This document shows positions 2,415-33,600 of a DNA stretch of 64,000 nucleotides, piece by piece. This stretch comes from an uncultured Flavobacteriales bacterium (lineage in GTDB: Bacteria > Bacteroidota > Bacteroidia > CAIKAF01), in the NCBI GenBank assembly GCA_903837495.1, contig CAILUT010000005.1:43782-107781 (forward strand). Reading direction: 5' to 3'. Position numbers and translations under genes: made by a program. Below the pieces are notes generated by a model, which saw nothing but the letters and a program-made list of their open reading frames with translations, did no database searches and was not told where the DNA came from. Positions within the stretch are counted from its first letter, which is position 1. The number at the start of each line of letters is the position of its first letter.

Positions 2415-4236
2415 GCGTGCCGGGGAGTTTCGTATGACTCCCCCGGATCGGATTTTCAGGCAGGTTCAAAATGAACTGCCCGGCCAAGCTATTCCCGGTT
2501 TGAAGGAGCAGGCCGAAGCATTTGTTGTGCAACCCTCTGCAGGCTTGTTTGACGGAATACAAGCAGGTTTGGCCAACCAAGTAGCTCCCGCATTGCAGGA
2601 ACAGGCCGACGCTTTTCGCCTAAATCCTTCCGAGCAGCTGTTTGAAAAAATTCAACAGCAACTTCCAGGGCAGGCCCTTCCCGCCTTGTCCGAAAAAGCG
2701 ACCGACTTCCGCCTACAGCCCTCGGCTAAGCTGTTTCAACACATTCAACGCCGCATGCAAGCACGCCGCCGCCGCCGTGCAGCGGCCCTCTTGCTCACAA
2801 TCCTCATCTTGGGCTCCGCTGCCTGGGTCTTGCCCACATTCTTTGGCGATTCAGGCCTGGGAACCGCCAACCAGAGCTCGGAAACGGCCCAAACTCCATT
2901 AAAAAATCAAAATCAAAACACCCCGGGTACAGAGAACCCAGAACAGCCCGAAGCAGAACCGGCAACTGCCACCGAAACAGCCTTTTCAGCCACCGGAGCA
3001 GAAAGCCTAGAGCCTTCAAACAGCAGCAATACCGGTACCGGCAGACCGAAGCAAAGCAGTTCGAAAAACAGAAATACGAGCGGGCAGGAAGAAGCCGAAA
3101 CAGGCAAAACCAAGGCCTCGGCAGCCTCCGAAAAAGAACAAGCAAGCGGCTTGGCTGCCAAAAACTCGGCTGGGCTACATTCCAACCGATCTGAGAAAAA
3201 ATCAACCCAACCCAACGGGGCTCGGCGTTCGGGAAGAGGGAATAGAAACGGGCAGGCGGAATCTGCCTCAGGCTTAGCCGGCGACCAAAAAGGAAAAGCC
3301 GAACTAGGTTTAAGCAAGCGTGAAAGCTGGGAGCCGCTGGAGTTGAAATGGGAAAAATACCAGGCACAGCGCATCGAACCCGTGTTTAGCTGGAGTTCCT
3401 TCAACAACCGCTGGAAGCGCCCACACATAGAAAAAGTATTTCTGCGTACTCCCCAGCGCCGCCCAGCCCGATTCTCGCTGCGCGGACAATTCGAAGCCAC
3501 GGCCTTAGCTACACAAATGGACTTTAGCGAAAACCCAGATTACCAAGGCAAAAAAAGCAGTTTGTTGAATCCCGCTTCTTATCAGGACTTAGAGTCAAGG
3601 CTTCAAACTCCCGACTTTTCATACCAGGTTCAAGCCGGGTTGGAGTTCGGGTTCCGATCGGTTTACCTGCGCACGGGGCTAAGTTTGCTGCGCTTGACCT
3701 ACCAGCAAAACGAGCTGCAATTTGAGCACAAATCATTGATTGTAAACGTACCCGTTACCGACACCCTGACCTTTACCAACAGTGCGGGAGTTGATACCAC
3801 GGTGGTGTACAGCTACATCAAGCCCGAGCTAAAAGACGTGCTAGACACCACGCGCATCACCTACTCGGCGCGGGCCACCTATGCGAGTATTCCCTTGGCT
3901 TTTGGCTACCGACACGAGCGGGGCCGATGGTTTGCCCAGGCCGACGTAGGCGTGGCTCTGAATCTTTTTATTGAGGGCCGCGGATTGGCCTACATGGCTG
4001 CCGGGGCCACAGTATTGGCTCCCACGGGTCAGGCCGATCAGGCATTGTGGAACAGCTTGGGCTTAGACGCCACAGCCCGACTCAAAGCAGGCTTAAAACT
4101 ATCGCGACGCTGGTCAGCCGCCCTGCACCTCGACTTGCGCATGGGCTTACGCCCAGTGTATTCGAGCGATCACGCCCTGCACCAAACCTATTCCGGCATG
4201 GGCCTAGGCTTCTCGCTAAACCACAGGATTTACTAG
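2371..4236 (+). CDS. anti-sigma-factor-like membrane protein with C-terminal outer-membrane beta-barrel (PorT/OMP_b-brl-like) domain
   Basis: Overlaps the 3' end of the ECF sigma gene. It has three tandem repeats of about 31 aa at the N-terminus, an R-rich stretch followed by one TM helix (AAALLLTILILGSAAWVLP), a long S/N/Q/E-rich low-complexity linker, and a C-terminal roughly 250 aa with alternating hydrophobic beta-strand pattern ending in an aromatic residue. Confidence 0.55.
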   Translation: MQFPMSVKWFELLRKRAGEFRMTPPDRIFRQVQNELPGQAIPGLKEQAEAFVVQPSAGLFDGIQAGLANQVAPALQEQADAFRLNPSEQLFEKIQQQLPGQALPALSEKATDFRLQPSAKLFQHIQRRMQARRRRRAAALLLTILILGSAAWVLPTFFGDSGLGTANQSSETAQTPLKNQNQNTPGTENPEQPEAEPATATETAFSATGAESLEPSNSSNTGTGRPKQSSSKNRNTSGQEEAETGKTKASAASEKEQASGLAAKNSAGLHSNRSEKKSTQPNGARRSGRGNRNGQAESASGLAGDQKGKAELGLSKRESWEPLELKWEKYQAQRIEPVFSWSSFNNRWKRPHIEKVFLRTPQRRPARFSLRGQFEATALATQMDFSENPDYQGKKSSLLNPASYQDLESRLQTPDFSYQVQAGLEFGFRSVYLRTGLSLLRLTYQQNELQFEHKSLIVNVPVTDTLTFTNSAGVDTTVVYSYIKPELKDVLDTTRITYSARATYASIPLAFGYRHERGRWFAQADVGVALNLFIEGRGLAYMAAGATVLAPTGQADQALWNSLGLDATARLKAGLKLSRRWSAALHLDLRMGLRPVYSSDHALHQTYSGMGLGFSLNHRIY

Positions 4237-26930: not shown

Positions 26931-27401
26931 TGCATTGCTTTCCGTTCATGAATTGAATTCGAAAATAATCATTTTGGGGGACTCCACGGCAGCACAGGGC
27001 AATCCCAGTCCGTGTAAATGGCAGGGCATTTTTTTAGAGCGGAATTTAAGGCGAAGGCATGACCGGCGCCTATAAACCTATTTATCTAAGATAGAGCACC
27101 GATTTGAAATTCCAAATCAACAGCCCGCCGCATGTTTCCAAACCCGATTTCCCTCAACCCCAAATCCCAAGCCCCAAAAAATGTGGGATATCCTTATCGC
27201 CTGTTTCAATCCTACGATTTCCGCTGCCTAAGCGCCCGAACCTATCCGTCAGATGGGAATAAAAGCAGCATTGAGAACCCAGATGAACACAAACAGCCAT
27301 GCGGCTGTTCTTGATTCGGCATCTGAAATTCGGGTATAACCTGTTTTTTTGCCGGCCGCATTGCGTTCAGTTCAAGACACAAACCGCCCCAAAATATTCC
27401 C

Positions 27402-27409
27402 TACCTTTG
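27402..27409 (+). promoter_or_regulatory. Bacteroidetes -7 box TACCTTTG upstream of lpdA
   Basis: Exact TAnnTTTG 18 bp upstream of ATG 27427. Confidence 0.4.
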
Positions 27410-27426
27410 CAGTAAATTGTCTTGCT

Positions 27427-28830
27427 ATGCAAAGCTTTCAGGTTGTTGTAATCGGGTCAGGACCTGGCGGATATGTCGCTGCCATCCGTTGTGCTCAGTT
27501 GGGTTTAAAAACCGCGTTGATCGAAAAATATGCTACCCTAGGCGGCACCTGCCTGAATGTTGGCTGTATTCCATCAAAAGCCTTGCTTGACAGTTCAGAA
27601 CATTATTACAATGCCAGCCACACCTTCGCCGAGCACGGCATTGAGCTGAGCAACCTGAAAGTCAATTTTGCACAAATGATTGCGCGCAAAAATGAGGTGG
27701 TTAGCCAAACCAGTGGAGGGATTTCGGGTCTCATGAAAAAAAACGGAGTTGCCGTTTTTCAGGGAACAGGCTCCTTTAAAGCCAAAGGCACCATACTGCT
27801 TACCGCCAACGACGGCAGCCAAATCGATTTGAATTACGAAAAAGCCATAATTGCTACGGGATCCAAACCCGCTGGCCTTCCGGGCATTGAACCCGACAAA
27901 AAACGCATCATCACCTCGACCGAAGCCTTGAATCTAAAAGAAGTTCCCAGCCATTTGTTGGTTATTGGAGGAGGAGCCATTGGATTAGAAATGGGTTCTG
28001 TTTATGCCCGATTGGGGGCAAAGGTTAGCATTGTTGAATTTGCAGACCGGCTAATTCCGGGCTTTGACGGCACTATGAGCAAAGATTTAACCCGGGTAAT
28101 GAAAAAATTGGGTGCCGAAGTATTCACCGAAACCCGCGTAACCTCTGTAAAAAATACCGGGAAACAGGTTCTGGTTACCGCCGAAAACAAAAAAGGGGAA
28201 GCCCTTGAATGGAAGGTGTCCTACTGCCTAGTTTCCGTAGGCCGAAAACCTTACACCGAAGGATTGAACCTGGCTTCTGTTGGCCTGAGTACCGACGACC
28301 GTGGGCGGATTCCTGTCAACGATCACTTGCAAACGGCCGACCCAAATATTTACGCTATTGGCGATGTGGTGCGCGGTGCTATGCTTGCACACAAAGCCGA
28401 AGAAGAAGGCATGCTCGCCGCCGAATTGATTTCTGGACAGCAACCCCACATCAATTACTTGCTGATTCCAAATGTAGTATATACCTGGCCGGAGGTCGCC
28501 TCCGTAGGTCATACAGAAGAGGAATTGAAGGCGTCTGGCCGTGCATACAAAGTGGGTAGTTTTCCCTTCCGGGCCAGCGGTCGAGCACGAGCCAGCATGG
28601 ATTTAGATGGGCAGGTAAAGGTGCTTGCCGACAAAAACAACGATGAAATACTGGGTGTTCACATTATCGGCCCCCGTGCCGCAGACATGATTGCAGAAGC
28701 TGTAGTTGCAATGGAATATCGAGCTACCGCCGAAGACATTGCTCGAATAAGCCACGCCCACCCTACTTATACTGAAGCCTTTAAAGAAGCTTGCTTGGCG
28801 GCCACAGACAACAGAGCTATTCACATCTGA
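27427..28830 (+). CDS. lpdA: dihydrolipoyl dehydrogenase
   Basis: FQVVVIGSGPGGYVAAIRCAQLG, redox-active GGTCLNVGCIPSK, C-terminal HAHPT motif. 467 aa. Confidence 0.9.
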   Translation: MQSFQVVVIGSGPGGYVAAIRCAQLGLKTALIEKYATLGGTCLNVGCIPSKALLDSSEHYYNASHTFAEHGIELSNLKVNFAQMIARKNEVVSQTSGGISGLMKKNGVAVFQGTGSFKAKGTILLTANDGSQIDLNYEKAIIATGSKPAGLPGIEPDKKRIITSTEALNLKEVPSHLLVIGGGAIGLEMGSVYARLGAKVSIVEFADRLIPGFDGTMSKDLTRVMKKLGAEVFTETRVTSVKNTGKQVLVTAENKKGEALEWKVSYCLVSVGRKPYTEGLNLASVGLSTDDRGRIPVNDHLQTADPNIYAIGDVVRGAMLAHKAEEEGMLAAELISGQQPHINYLLIPNVVYTWPEVASVGHTEEELKASGRAYKVGSFPFRASGRARASMDLDGQVKVLADKNNDEILGVHIIGPRAADMIAEAVVAMEYRATAEDIARISHAHPTYTEAFKEACLAATDNRAIHI

Positions 28831-29057
28831 TACTTTTGCCCTATCCGCTTTTCAGTGCGTTGGGGATTTGCCTCTTCCAACAACATGCATATTCGGCTCA
28901 AACTAGCAGCTAGCTGAACCAAATGCCTTTGCAAAACAGGGGGGGCACTGACCTTTGTTGAAAAATAATGGTACATTTACTCCATTCTCCCTAGCAACAC
29001 GGCTTTCGAGGTTTCCGAGCGAAAAGAAAGTTCGACAAACATCAAACAGTACTTCCT

Positions 29058-29228
29058 TATGTTTAAGAAATTTTCACTCACCGACAAATTGCTGTTCATT
29101 TCAGCCAGCCTTTCCTTGGTATATTCTGAAATCCTTTTCTTTAATGGAAATACCAACGAAGCAATATTTGTAGGAATATGGGTTCCCAGCATCCTCGCCT
29201 TTGGAATTTATTTGAAATTAATAAATAA
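29058..29228 (+). CDS. small hydrophobic ORF (56 aa), hypothetical
   Basis: MFKKFSLTDKLLFISASLSLVYSEILFFNGNTNEAIFVGIWVPSILAFGIYLKLNK is not in the ORF track (<60 aa). Two predicted TM helices in an AT-rich islet. Confidence 0.25.
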
Positions 29229-29230
29229 AA

Positions 29231-29341
29231 ATGACTGAATTCATCCCTTATTTTGCTGGAGTTATTACTCTAATTTTTGGAGTTGCCTTTAGCTATTCGA
29301 TTACCGACGGATGGAATTTCAAAAGAAAAAAAAAGGAATAA
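29231..29341 (+). CDS. small hydrophobic ORF (36 aa), hypothetical
   Basis: MTEFIPYFAGVITLIFGVAFSYSITDGWNFKRKKKE has a single TM helix plus a basic tail. Confidence 0.2.
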   Translation: MTEFIPYFAGVITLIFGVAFSYSITDGWNFKRKKKE

Positions 29342-29440
29342 TTGCCCTGCTTGGAAAATTGTGGATTGATGGTATAGCTTAATTTAAAAAAAAAATAACG
29401 GGTTAAAAAATAAAACGAATCACTTTAATTAAATTTCAAA

Positions 29441-29791
29441 ATGAACATCTATATTCCATCTATACTTCAGCTTGCCGTAGGATTGTCGGTTATTTACGTT
29501 TGGGTTTTTCGATATGACAATGTCGTTTTGGAGTTCAAACAATTTGGTTTAAGTGATATAACGAGAAATGCGGTGGGGGCGTCAAAAACCATATTGTCAA
29601 CCTTGCTTATCGTTGGGATTTGGAAAACCGACTTGGTTTTCCTGTCGGCAATACTGATGGGGGGCTTTATGTTGGCAGCACAATATTTTCATTTTAAAGT
29701 GAATAACCCCCTCGCCAAACGCATCCCTTCTCTGGTCTTTTTGTTTTTATCGGCAATTATTGCCCTGAATCCGTTTCAATATTTGAAATGA
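29441..29791 (+). CDS. DoxX-like small membrane protein
   Basis: 116 aa, 3-4 TM helices. Tandem paralog follows with a 4-nt overlap. Confidence 0.45.
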   Translation: MNIYIPSILQLAVGLSVIYVWVFRYDNVVLEFKQFGLSDITRNAVGASKTILSTLLIVGIWKTDLVFLSAILMGGFMLAAQYFHFKVNNPLAKRIPSLVFLFLSAIIALNPFQYLK

Positions 29792-30138
29792 CAATTCAGT
29801 TTGTTTGCGTTTTAATATCAGCTGTATCTTTTTATTTCTACGGGGCCGCTTATTTTCTATCGCCGCACATAAAAGCGGAATTTAGGAGATTCAAACTGGA
29901 GCGAATAGGGGTTCTGGTGGTAGGGTTGGAATTGCTGGGCGCCACGGGTTTATTGGTGGGCCTCAAATACAATCCGCTGCTCATGGCTTCGTCTTTGGGC
30001 CTTGGGGTGTTGATGTTGTGCGGCTTAATCGTTCGCATCAAGTTTAAGGACAGCTTTTTGATTTCCATTCCAGCCTTTTTTTTCATGATTTTAAACTTTT
30101 TCATTTTTTTTCAAACCCTTAAATTTCAAAGTCCCTAA
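29788..30138 (+). CDS. DoxX-like small membrane protein (tandem paralog)
   Basis: 116 aa, 4 TM helices, same length as its neighbour. Confidence 0.45.
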   Translation: MTIQFVCVLISAVSFYFYGAAYFLSPHIKAEFRRFKLERIGVLVVGLELLGATGLLVGLKYNPLLMASSLGLGVLMLCGLIVRIKFKDSFLISIPAFFFMILNFFIFFQTLKFQSP

Positions 30139-30421
30139 CCTGCAATTCGTACAAAGGGACGGGGATTCGTTTAGGCTTTATGGATTGGCTGCAACCGTTT
30201 TTTCGAGGGGGCTAAAATACAGCCGCCGCTCTAATGCAACGGAGGAAATCGTGGATAAACATTGAACCTGTTTTTAGATGCGGTTGGGTTTTTAGGAACA
30301 AAGGGAACCCCTCCGATTCAAATAACACCACCTCGAAATCAGGTCAAAGAATCTTATCTGAAAAAATGGCCGCTTATCATTTGGCATTATGTCCGTATCG
30401 CATTATATTTGCCCCGTCAAT

Positions 30422-30492
30422 TGCCCGATCGTCTAACGGTAGGACAGCAGTTTTTGGTACTGTTTGTGGTGGTTCGAATCCATCTCGGGCAA
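30422..30492 (+). tRNA. tRNA-Gln (anticodon UUG)
   Basis: Hand-folded: acceptor TGCCCGA/TCGGGCA, D-arm GTCT-AACGGTA-GGAC, anticodon stem GCAGT/ACTGT with loop TTTTGGT (U33, UUG), 4-nt variable loop, T-arm GGTGG-TTCGAAT-CCATC, discriminator A. CCA is not encoded. Confidence 0.8.
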
Positions 30493-30496
30493 CATT

Positions 30497-30524
30497 AGCG
30501 CTCTTCGGGGCGCTTTTTTTATGT
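30497..30524 (+). terminator. rho-independent terminator after tRNA-Gln
   Basis: AGCGC-TCTTCGGG-GCGCT hairpin followed by TTTTTTT. Confidence 0.6.
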
Positions 30525-30626
30525 CGTGCGTTGAGGCATCACCCAGCCACTTAACCTATTCATAACAGACTGCGTTCCGGTGGCTCTTCGGTTTTTTTTG
30601 TAATTTCAACCCAAATAAAAATTCCA

Positions 30627-33600
30627 ATGCTTCGATTGCTATTTCTAAGCTTTCTTTTGCCCATCAGTCTGTTCGCCCAAACCGACACGGAATTTTGGTT
30701 TGTGGCCCCCGAGGTTCAGCAAAGCCATGGCGACCGGCCCATCACCGTTCGTTTGTCCACCTCGCAGCAAGCGGCCACGGTACAAATTACCATGCCCATC
30801 AATCCGGGATTTCCTCCGATCAACGCAGTAATTCCCCCCAATACTACCAATTCCTTCGATTTAACCACTTGGGTGGATTTGCTGGAGAACAAACCCGCCG
30901 ACGTGGTCCTTGACAAAGCCCTGCGCATTGTTTCAAGCGCACCGATTACGGCCTATTATGAGGTGGTTACTTCCTGCAACTGCAATCCCGACATTTTCAC
31001 CTTAAAAGGCCGAAACGCCTTGGGCACTTCTTTTATGCTTCCTTTTCAAACCTTCCTGAACAATGGAGTAGGAAATGCCTGGAGCGGATTTGATATTGTG
31101 GCAACCCAGCCCAATACCAGCATTACCATAACTCCCACCGCCGCCATTGTAGGCCATCCGGCGGGCGTGCCCTTCACCATCAACCTAAACATGGGCGAAA
31201 CTTGGAGTGGAGTATCCACATCACAGAGTTTTACTCAGCGGCCCAGCGGAACAACAATTAGTTCAGACAAGCCCATAGCAGTTACCATCAAAGACGACTC
31301 CATGAATGGAGGTGTTTACGGCGGGTGTGCCGACCTGATGGGCGACCAAATGGTTCCTATTCCATTGCTCGGCACCGACTACATTACCATCAAAGGCTAT
31401 TTGAATGGTCCCGACCGGGTTTTTGTAATGGCAACCCAAAACAACACCCAAGTAACCATTGATGGAACCGTTGTAGGAACCATCAATGCTGGGCAAAGCT
31501 ATACCCACGTTCAATCGGCCAACACTGCCTTTATTCAGGCCAGCTTGCCGGTGTACGTCTTGCATACCACAGGTTTTGGCTGCGAAGTGGGGGGAGCCGT
31601 TCTACCGACCATTATTTGCACTGGCAGCCAGCAAATTGGTTTTACCCGAAGTACCACCGAATTTTTTGCCTTAAATTTAATGGTGAAAGCCGGGGGTGAA
31701 GGCAATTTTACCTTAAACGGCAATCCCACCCTCATTACCTCAGGCAATTTTGCACCTGTTCCCGGCTCCAATGGCGCATGGATGTATGCCCAAATTCAAT
31801 TTAACACCAACAACATCCCCCAAGGCCAGGCAAGCCTCATTGCCAATTCTTCTCATTTGTTCCACATGGGGGTGATCAACGGCGGAGCTTCTTCCGGTTG
31901 CCGGTACGGGTATTTCTCCGACTATTCAGCCTATCAATTTGACGCCAGCTCTACCACCGATTCAATCTGCCAAGGAGGTAACCTCATTTTGAGTGCCAAT
32001 TCTTTGGGCGGGGCCAATTATCAGTGGACCGGTCCAAACAATTATTCAAGTTCCAACCAAATCGATACGCTATTCAATGTAAATCCGTCGATTTCAGGAC
32101 TGTATCATTTGACGGGTTCGGTTGGAGCCTGCCCTGTGATTTCCGATAGTATATTGGTGTTTATTCAGCAAACGCCTGCCCCTGCGGTGGCCGCTCCCCT
32201 GGGGCCTGTTTGTGCTGGCGACACGGCATTTCTTTCGGCTACTGGCCCATTGGGTGCGTCGTATCAGTGGTCTGGGCCAAACAACTTTCAATCTACAGGT
32301 CAACAAACCCAAGTTGTTGGGATTCTGTCTCCCCAATCTGGTTGGTACACTGTGATTCCAGTCATTAATGGGTGCCCCGGCAGCAGCGATCAGGTATGGG
32401 TTTCGGTTGATTCTGTCGCCCTTAATCCCCAGGTTGTTTCGCCTGTATGCAACAACGGGAGTACGGGCAGCATTCTATTGAATGTACAAAGCGGCATATC
32501 TCCTTTTACCTTTGCTTGGAACGGGAATTTACCTCCGGTTTCTCAACAATCCAATTTGGTTCCAGGCACCTATACCGTTTTGGTAACCGATTCGAACGGC
32601 TGCACGGCAACTTTTTCGACAACCCTTTCTAACCCTGCCCCCATCAACGTTTCTTTAAATGCCAGCCCTGCTACCTGTCCCAGTTCTGCCGATGGAAGCC
32701 TTCAAGCTCAAACGGGAGGCGGTACCGGCCCCCTTTCCTTTCAATGGAGCCATGGCCCAACGGTTCAAAATCCAGCCCCTGTTTCAGGTGGTTGGTATTT
32801 TTTAACCACCACCGACAGCAACGGTTGTCAAAGAACAGATTCGGTTTTGGTGCCGGCACCGCCCATGCTAACCGCCGCTTTCGATTCTGTTTTGCCGCCT
32901 CTGTGCTTTGGGAATTCAAACGGCTTCCTTTCACTTTTGGCCAGCGGTGGCCCCGGCGGATTTAACTACCAATGGATTGGTAGCGGCTATTCTCAAGCTA
33001 GTCAAGGGGGCTTGGCCGCGGGGAATTACCAAATTGTACTGACCGATGGCCTTGGCTGCGACACGCTTATTTTAGACACCAGCCTTATTTCTCCGCCCCC
33101 GGTGGTTGTAACGGCTGCGGGCCCCAACCCGATTTGCCAAGGCATCCCCTTTTTGCTAACGGCAACGGGTGGTCAATCTTATCTTTGGGCAGGAGGCAGC
33201 ATCAACGGAACGGGTGGCGACAGCGTATTTACCAGCCTGCAACAAAACACGACCTTCTCTGTAATTGGCTCGGTTGGTCCTTGTGCCGATACCGCCCAGG
33301 TTTCCGTTTCGGTATTGCCCCGTCCTCAGGCCGACGTCCAATGGCAAGGAGCTTGTGTAAACGATACGCTTTGGCTCGATGCCAGTGGCAGCCAAGTGGG
33401 CAATCCAGCTCAACTGCAACAGTGGTTTTGGGATTTGAATGAAGATGACCAAAACGATGCCCAACAAATTGCAATTGGCCATGTGTTTTCTGCGCCGGGG
33501 TCCCCGATTGTTCGGCTGATTGTGGTAGCCGACAATGGCTGCATTGACACCCTTCATGTGCCGGTGGCGGTTCACCCACTTCCCTTTTCCGCATTTGTTC

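Follow-up and report, generated by a model that had tools for sequence, protein, structure and literature searches.

Between lpdA and the gene for tRNA-Gln, in a 64,000-nucleotide stretch of DNA from an uncultured Flavobacteriales bacterium (the whole stretch is what we call the window), sits an AT-rich islet of four very small membrane-protein genes, with a CHU_C/SprB-type surface protein beyond the tRNA. The genes come as two modules of two. The first, ORF1 and ORF2 (ORF, open reading frame), encodes a pair of micro-proteins; the second, DoxA and DoxB, encodes two paralogues of the DoxX_2 family (PF13564). A sequence-only reading of the stretch had taken the islet for horizontally acquired cargo beside a tRNA. 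We have come to think it quite probable that this is an ordinary chromosomal Bacteroidota operon, two translationally coupled two-gene modules for small inner-membrane proteins, and that no foreign DNA is involved. The features are these (nt, nucleotides; aa, amino acids; GC, guanine plus cytosine).

28831..29058, plus strand: leader from the lpdA stop to ORF1, 228 nt, 44.7% GC
28977..29192, minus strand: spurious 71-aa antisense ORF; seven of the species' ten public contigs have it called where ORF1 should be
29059..29238, plus strand: ORF1, 59 aa, two-helix hairpin inner-membrane protein
29231..29341, plus strand: ORF2, 36 aa, single-helix membrane protein
29342..29440, plus strand: inter-module spacer, 99 nt, 25% GC
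29441..29791, plus strand: DoxA, 116 aa, DoxX_2 (PF13564), four transmembrane helices
29788..30138, plus strand: DoxB, 116 aa, DoxX_2 paralogue of DoxA
30139..30379, plus strand: spacer from DoxB to the tRNA promoter, not conserved
30380..30411, plus strand: tRNA-Gln promoter, Bacteroidetes-type, TTTG-N20-TATATTTG
30422..30493, plus strand: tRNA-Gln, anticodon ttg, a transcription unit separate from the cassette
30497..30520, plus strand: intrinsic terminator of tRNA-Gln, a GC-rich hairpin followed by a T-run

As a description of the locus, the sequence-only reading was a good one. All four small membrane genes lie between lpdA and tRNA-Gln where it had put them, and the tRNA and its terminator close the stretch as it had said. 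The micro-ORFs overlap as claimed, ORF1 stop into ORF2 start, by 8 nt (ATGACTGA), and the tandem 116-aa DoxX-like paralogues by 4 nt, the DoxA stop and DoxB start sharing ATGA. The reading had ORF2 right at 36 aa and ORF1 slightly short, at 56 aa in place of 59. It had also remarked that both micro-ORFs were absent from the ORF track, which they are because they fall below the 60-aa default of the ORF list.

ORF1 and ORF2 are real, strongly conserved protein genes that form an obligate pair. Our neighbourhood sample was 80 ORF1-centred metagenome loci; in 79 of them ORF2 comes directly after ORF1. The overlap of stop and start is kept in 99 of 102 loci (8 nt in 86, 4 nt in 13), and this overlap indicates translational coupling. 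Variation in ORF1 is 0.40 at codon position 3 versus 0.16 and 0.07 at positions 1 and 2, and in ORF2 0.39 versus 0.17 and 0.10. Of 90 homologous loci, just 11 keep the 71-aa antisense frame open. Comparing the window with L011, a relative to which we return below, the ratio of nonsynonymous (dN) to synonymous (dS) substitution rates is 0.04-0.11 across all four cassette genes. Within the window's own species, 27 of the 37 variants of the stretch are intergenic, and of the nine in coding sequence all but one are synonymous; the 99-nt spacer is the stretch's most polymorphic part. The sequence-only reading had counted a lack of conservation in the micro-ORFs as part of what would speak against it; they proved to be genuine, highly conserved genes.

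The ORF1 family is a large one, with 1418 homologous clusters at 90% identity. The homologues sampled share 73-95% identity with the window copy and are nearly all 59-61 aa long, mostly 61; not one of them is named or carries a Pfam domain. A profile search found 604 family clusters at 50% identity, all small proteins and some of them tandem duplications, with FVGLWVPSIL as the hallmark common to this wider family. The invariant residues of the ORF1 alignment include D9, E24 (inside the first transmembrane helix) and the WVPS motif. E24 is invariant in the close family and lost in the wider one, where FVGLWVPSIL is retained. Three distant relatives (P0440, P0453 and P0488, 97-123 aa) are internally duplicated, two hairpins fused into one protein. 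Hydropathy and charge predict ORF1 to be a hairpin with both termini inside, its invariant Glu within helix 1, and ORF2 to be a single helix with its N terminus out and its C terminus in, ending in a Lys/Arg tail and carrying a conserved PYFAG motif. By our definition the first member of the pair is a 58-61-aa hairpin protein with FxGxWVPSIL, and the second is a PYFAG protein of 29-43 aa that starts across, or right next to, the stop codon of the first. Both motifs are present in the window copy, and so is the 8-nt overlap.

Searches of Pfam, NCBIfam, PADLOC, PHROGs and the PDB with the micro-proteins returned no significant match, and our literature searches found no description of the cassette. 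We located neither a model nor any literature for this family. A thought that ORF1 and ORF2 might be a split DUF805-domain protein was dropped, the concatenated sequences giving no DUF805 match even at E<=10. As for existing annotation, the Joint Genome Institute labels ORF2 a "putative flippase GtrA", on a sub-threshold Pfam match (E 0.034); that label and the antisense 71-aa call both appear to be errors.

DoxA and DoxB match the Pfam DoxX_2 model at 36.2 and 28.5 bits, above its gathering score of 26.3. They are 30% identical to one another (E 2e-5), and PF13564 is present in all 349 homologues found. A scan with one genome per species gave 80 Bacteroidota loci with a DoxA homologue, and DoxB follows DoxA immediately in 75 of them. 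DoxA has 21 invariant positions, no conserved Cys, and a conserved polar cluster (R24, N27, E31, R42, K49, Q81 and H84) that is predicted to lie near the cytoplasmic face. The two proteins have the same Lys plus Arg bias and hence the same predicted membrane orientation, which rules out a dual-topology heterodimer of the CrcB or EmrE kind. They share a four-helix integral membrane fold with the solved member of DoxX_2, the chaperone NACHO/TMEM35A, which is the closest solved fold at a sequence identity of only 19%; a sequence search of solved structures with ORF1 and DoxA gave nothing significant. We know of no bacterial DoxX_2 protein with a tested function. Metagenome-assembled genomes labelled Lentimonas (Verrucomicrobiota) or Ignavibacteria (L021, L055 and L076) also carry cassettes, which cluster among the Bacteroidota copies and could reflect mis-binning, mislabelling or real transfer.

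The two modules are separable yet linked. No other neighbour of the micro-ORF pair comes near DoxA-DoxB in frequency: it occurs at 18 of the 80 ORF1-centred loci (downstream at 13, upstream at 5), a lower bound given that many contigs are short. Most DoxA-DoxB pairs in the 80 DoxA-centred genome loci have no micro-ORFs nearby, and the closest relative of the window's ORF1, in L108 (95% identical as protein), has no DoxX gene within 8 kb.

What links the modules to something larger is an RNA. Comparing leaders from distant taxa, we found a conserved block of about 70 nt upstream of ORF1, which Rfam identifies as the DUF805 RNA (RF03081; 58-84 bits against a gathering score of 51.1). With a covariance model purpose-built from ten copies, it turns up immediately ahead of ORF1 at 33 of the 80 ORF1-centred loci. 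Six of the DoxA-centred genome loci have the RNA in front of ORF1, about 18 without micro-ORFs have it in front of DoxA, and at one locus (L189) it lies ahead of both modules. The gap from RNA to module is 10-20 nt in dozens of homologous loci. In those we examined, the DUF805 RNA mostly fronts micro-ORFs and DoxX_2 pairs, and sometimes proteorhodopsin. Its ligand is not described in the literature we searched. Our own locus has no copy. Rfam at E<=1 gave no DUF805 RNA match over positions 28000-31500; the covariance model, run with filters off over the whole window, gave a best match of 12 bits (E 0.6) that lies outside the locus; and the model finds no DUF805 RNA in L011-L013. A degenerate remnant in leader or spacer was also considered and rejected, with none found with filters off and a leader folding energy that is ordinary (z-score 0.13).

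The company that the RNA keeps elsewhere is worth setting out. It lies directly before proteorhodopsin genes (PF01036) at L159 (RNA 3023-3088, gene 3104-3817) and at L034 (5859-5918 and 5937-6638), where RNA and gene come directly after DoxB. These RNA-linked proteorhodopsins have, by eye, the DTE proton-pump motif. Rhodopsin genes lie no more than 6 kb from either module in eight fetched loci (including L114/L115, L162/L163, L168 and L055), among which L114/L115 and L162/L163 each seem to be one lineage. The order in L114/L115 is ORF1-ORF2-DoxA-DoxB, with the rhodopsin about 0.7 kb beyond. All this suggests a common membrane-protein regulon of rhodopsin, micro-ORF and DoxX_2 modules. The RNA also precedes a TM2-domain protein (L130:5370-5437, minus strand), a 237-aa protein that is unannotated and has a membrane helix at its C terminus (L152:7163-7230) and a partial ORF (L056:10084-10151), so the regulon is wider than the Rfam name implies. 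Flavobacterium lacus (L017 and L025) has two DoxA-DoxB pairs in one genome, one behind RNA-ORF1-ORF2 and the other without micro-ORFs, with a weak RNA-like match about 230 nt upstream. Another cultured species, F. cellulosilyticum, likewise has the complete order RNA-ORF1-ORF2-DoxA-DoxB. A multi-pass membrane protein of some 300 aa, unannotated and unmatched in Pfam (L024:5885-6781, L184:4939-5868 and about ten others), recurs beside the DoxX_2 pair in seven loci and the micro-ORF pair in five. In two Flavobacterium genomes the Flavo-1 small RNA (RF01705) lies about 1.5-2 kb from the cassette (L085:7217-7295 and L042:2978-3056), probably by coincidence.

It is tempting to go further and propose that both modules are one unrecognised Bacteroidota membrane system, co-regulated through the DUF805 RNA with proteorhodopsin, TM2-domain and DUF805 proteins. 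We regard this larger picture as speculative, and would sooner doubt it than assert it. If it were true, the micro-ORF pair would be the commonest gene behind the DUF805 RNA in the loci examined, knowing the true regulon would make it possible to test directly which ligand or trigger the RNA responds to and what DoxX_2 proteins do in bacteria, and the window's lineage would be a natural variant uncoupled from control by the RNA. This wider link, seen outside the window, is a more interesting lead than the locus itself.

We come now to composition, one of the things that had made the islet look foreign. The drop in GC is real. From 49.1% in the whole window it falls to 37.5% in 28950-30140 and to 30.9% in 29059-29440, and the stretch is the deepest GC trough of the 64 kb at scales of 400, 1200 and 1675 nt (400-nt minimum 0.308; window mean 0.491, sd 0.041). 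For each gene we drew 2,000 synonymous versions from the codon usage of the window, holding the amino-acid sequence fixed. Expected GC for ORF1, ORF2, DoxA and DoxB was 0.36, 0.40, 0.42 and 0.42, and the observed values are 0.33, 0.33, 0.40 and 0.42. GC at third codon positions (GC3) is 0.45 in DoxA and 0.51 in DoxB, within the host range of 0.44-0.69 set by the 39 other genes of the window. The flanking intergenic DNA, at 44-45% GC, is usual for the window's intergenic stretches; the 99-nt inter-module spacer is the sole extreme piece. GC is low mostly because the proteins are hydrophobic and rich in Phe, Ile, Leu, Lys and Asn, with the AT-rich spacer adding its share. The trough is mostly a matter of protein content and one spacer, and a foreign composition is not indicated. 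There is a general point here, that a GC trough can arise simply from small hydrophobic, Lys- and Asn-rich proteins and an AT-rich spacer.

What, then, of the tRNA? Elements that target tRNA genes insert at the tRNA 3' end. The cassette lies upstream of tRNA-Gln and of its promoter, off that end. The promoter has the TTTG-N20-TATATTTG consensus of the Bacteroidetes sigma-A type; L011 and the cassette-less L105 have identical boxes and a surrounding region that hardly differs. The tRNA gene (30422-30493) takes part in no direct repeat. The sole match to the tRNA is 22 nt long, 77% identical and inverted, pairing 29031-29052 with the tRNA body; we rejected it as the relic of an attachment (att) site, for it is no better than other listed chance pairs and is not conserved in L011. 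Of the ORFs between lpdA and CHU_C, the four small genes alone are conserved, and none of their products matches an integrase family or is a recombinase (the remaining short shadow ORFs were not searched). Nor does the tRNA belong to the cassette elsewhere: no tRNA gene lies between DoxB and the next gene in any of 12 other micro-ORF-bearing cassette loci scanned, and no lpdA match turned up in the fetched DoxA loci.

The relatives bear on the history of the site. L011 has the window's layout, lpdA-ORF1-ORF2-DoxA-DoxB-tRNA-Gln-CHU_C, with an ORF2 that extends nearly to DoxA, and its flanking proteins are 85-91% identical to the window's (lpdA 91%, CHU_C 86%, RecJ 88%). L105 and L106 (lpdA 89%, CHU_C 85%) are arranged as CHU_C<-tRNA-Gln<-RecJ and lpdA-> <-TPR; RecJ and the tRNA are 164 nt apart, lpdA is followed by 24 nt, and neither junction has the cassette. 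In L101 and L107 (lpdA 89%) lpdA runs directly into TPR with no cassette between, the outgroups L099 and L103 have none beside lpdA, and where lpdA is more distant (75% and 72% identity) its surroundings are unrelated. The comparison of relatives that the sequence-only reading had suggested thus cut both ways, giving the same locus in L011 and a want of synteny in three congeneric lineages, not a core locus common to all. The congener layouts differ by inversions of a RecJ-lpdA block, and the cassette, where present, is at the re-joined 3' junction of lpdA; its position is variable and at an inversion breakpoint. When cassette-bearing and cassette-less sequences are aligned, homology reaches the lpdA stop on one side and the tRNA promoter on the other, and neither edge has repeats. 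More broadly, when we compared 26286-50044 of the window with L011, L101, L105 and L107, three blocks (lpdA through RsgA and beyond; RecJ; and TPR-BBP2-T9SS_plug-LTD-Plug) proved to be joined in at least three orders or orientations among congeners, and the region looks like a local inversion hotspot.

A tree of DoxA plus DoxB makes sisters of the window and L011, with a bootstrap support of 97 out of 100 and their DoxX pair on long branches. This rules out independent acquisition of the cassette in the two, which their DoxX identity of 64-70% had suggested; the cassette has been at the site since before the window and L011 lineages split. DoxA and DoxB have a dN two to four times that of the flanking genes, and purifying selection persists (dN/dS 0.11). 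A recent transfer from the L108 lineage, with its 95% identical ORF1, was also rejected, as the DNA is 78% identical and the third positions only 47%.

How do the explanations compare? That the islet is mobile cargo acquired beside tRNA-Gln, such as bacteriocin immunity or export genes or toxin-antitoxin-like peptides, was a natural idea for a place with the lowest GC of the window, a tRNA next door, small hydrophobic peptides from overlapping genes, and a cassette present in two and absent from three congeneric lineages at the corresponding junctions. We now think it very unlikely. The polymorphism of presence and absence is what one sees in a tRNA island, but the integrase, the att repeat and insertion on the 3' side are all missing. 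Composition gives a mixed picture: the GC of DoxA and DoxB is fully explained by their proteins, and ORF1 and ORF2 have a GC3 that is 0.09-0.19 below expectation, over few codons. Nor do the genes look like cargo. Viral contigs and phage genomes yielded no homologues of the cassette, plasmids yielded only one distant DoxX (26% identical, on one plasmid), and for the four proteins there was no significant PHROG match and no PADLOC family match at E<=1. The locus has no bacteriocin precursor, C39-peptidase ABC (ATP-binding cassette) exporter or modification enzyme as a neighbour, and bacteriocin, ABC-exporter and antitoxin genes are absent from the recurrent neighbour families of about 160 homologous loci. 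Identity of 73-95% among the micro-proteins sampled across the phylum, together with a riboswitch-like leader elsewhere, fits a conserved cellular function and not immunity or toxin genes. The reading of the islet as tRNA-integrated cargo is, for the most part, unsupported, and a false "genomic island at a tRNA" can be removed. Less likely still, in our estimation hardly credible, is the case that the micro-ORFs are chance ORFs in AT-rich DNA, or the leader or regulatory region of the DoxX_2 pair. They are short and have no database family models, and most public gene calls favour the antisense ORF; yet their codon-position variation, length and overlap are conserved across the 102 loci, the antisense frame seldom stays open, and the pair also stands alone, as in L108.

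A gentler form of acquisition has more going for it, though we still judge it unlikely: an old transfer within the phylum, or a transposition, that put the cassette or just its micro-ORF half into the 3' flank of lpdA in the ancestor of the window and L011. The source would be a different Bacteroidota genome, or a site elsewhere in the same one; the move would have cost the cassette its DUF805 RNA leader, and the composition would since have become host-like. The absence of the cassette beside lpdA in L101, L107, L105 and the two outgroups would follow, as would its position exactly where RecJ and lpdA were re-joined, a leader without the RNA that precedes so many other ORF1 copies, the long branches of the DoxX pair and the slightly low GC3 of the micro-ORFs. 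Loss in the other lineages fits the same pattern equally well, however, no boundary repeats were found, and the third positions of ORF1 point to no recent donor in L108. Our preferred reading, an ordinary operon, has observations of its own weighing against it. GC3 is 0.40 in ORF1 against an expected 0.48 (z -1.4, on 58 codons only) and 0.29 in ORF2 against 0.47 (z -2.3, on 35 codons only). Identity between window and L011 is 70% for DoxA and 64% for DoxB, where the flanks have 85-91%, and is barely above that to Flavobacterium copies (64-67%). Most loci of either module lack the other within 5-6 kb. Attempts to date an insertion by dS failed on synonymous sites that are saturated in cassette and flanks alike (proportion of synonymous differences, pS, 0.57-0.71), which leaves the event undatable; and as the congeners are also about equidistant, gain in the stem of window and L011 and loss elsewhere are indistinguishable.

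If the islet is indeed an ordinary operon, we can sketch how it might work. The overlap of ORF1 and ORF2 would be expected to give equimolar synthesis, which makes a three-helix hetero-oligomer most likely, the two assembling 1:1 into a three-helix unit. DoxA and DoxB, in the same orientation, would most likely form a parallel heterodimer. The cassette's position would have shifted through ordinary rearrangement, gain or loss, rather than through integration at a tRNA. As the DUF805 RNA is missing from this lineage, expression is probably by a plain promoter or by read-through from lpdA, and the four genes may share one constitutive or read-through transcript. Terminator prediction found no plus-strand terminator between lpdA and ORF1, nor any in the 30139-30379 spacer. 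The main stretch that the leader aligns in common with L011 is a 15-nt block, CTTTGTTGAAAAATA (28953-28967), followed by GTAC; the block is a candidate promoter. The longest ORF for lpdA itself (27349-28830) starts at TTG 27349 and gives 493 aa; its homologues and the public gene calls have 467 aa, from ATG 27427.

The biochemical role is where we tread most carefully. The fold match to NACHO, and a membrane-protein regulon that includes rhodopsin, lead us to float, as a tentative suggestion, that the proteins serve other membrane proteins as accessories or as a scaffold for their assembly. About as likely is a redox role linked to quinones or thiols, by analogy with other DoxX-clan proteins, and what remains goes to something else, for example ion handling by the ORF1 carboxylate. 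Whatever the role, the work exposes a very widespread and strongly constrained micro-protein pair that gene callers routinely miss or place on the wrong strand. It connects both the micro-proteins and the DoxX_2 pairs of bacteria with a riboswitch candidate, itself an orphan, that also precedes proteorhodopsin genes, and it provides a concrete gene set for finding what the DUF805 RNA senses and what bacterial relatives of NACHO do.

Set beside known systems, the locus has several partial likenesses. With tRNA-linked islands it shares tRNA adjacency, low GC and variable presence among close relatives, but it lies 5' of an intact tRNA with its own promoter and has neither integrase nor att direct repeats. 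CydX-type subunits and the paired small multidrug-resistance or CrcB genes offer an analogy from general knowledge, in tiny hydrophobic proteins, stop/start overlaps and tandem paralogue pairs; no sequence relation to them was found, and DoxA and DoxB have the same orientation, not opposite ones. The DoxX/DoxD clan has redox proteins, among them the Acidianus thiosulfate:quinone oxidoreductase DoxDA, Mycobacterium tuberculosis DoxX-SseA-SodA and Bacillus subtilis MhqP/CatD. DoxA and DoxB are of the same Pfam clan and are likewise small multi-helix inner-membrane proteins, of a sort often encoded in stress-related operons. The adjacency of lpdA, a flavoprotein disulfide reductase, is suggestive, yet it is confined to two lineages; DoxA and DoxB match neither the DoxX (PF07681) nor the DoxD model and have no conserved Cys, and no sulfurtransferase, superoxide dismutase or dioxygenase partner lies nearby. 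NACHO/TMEM35A, a eukaryotic chaperone of the endoplasmic reticulum, we take to be the characterised, structurally solved member of DoxX_2. Our proteins have its family and its four-helix membrane fold, but they are bacterial, form an obligate tandem pair of diverged paralogues and have no pentameric-channel clients here. Finally, there is the DUF805 RNA, an orphan cis-regulatory element or riboswitch candidate of Bacteroidota. Rfam named it for DUF805-domain proteins, which ORF1 and ORF2 are not, and the window has no copy; elsewhere it is this RNA that the homologues of both modules follow.

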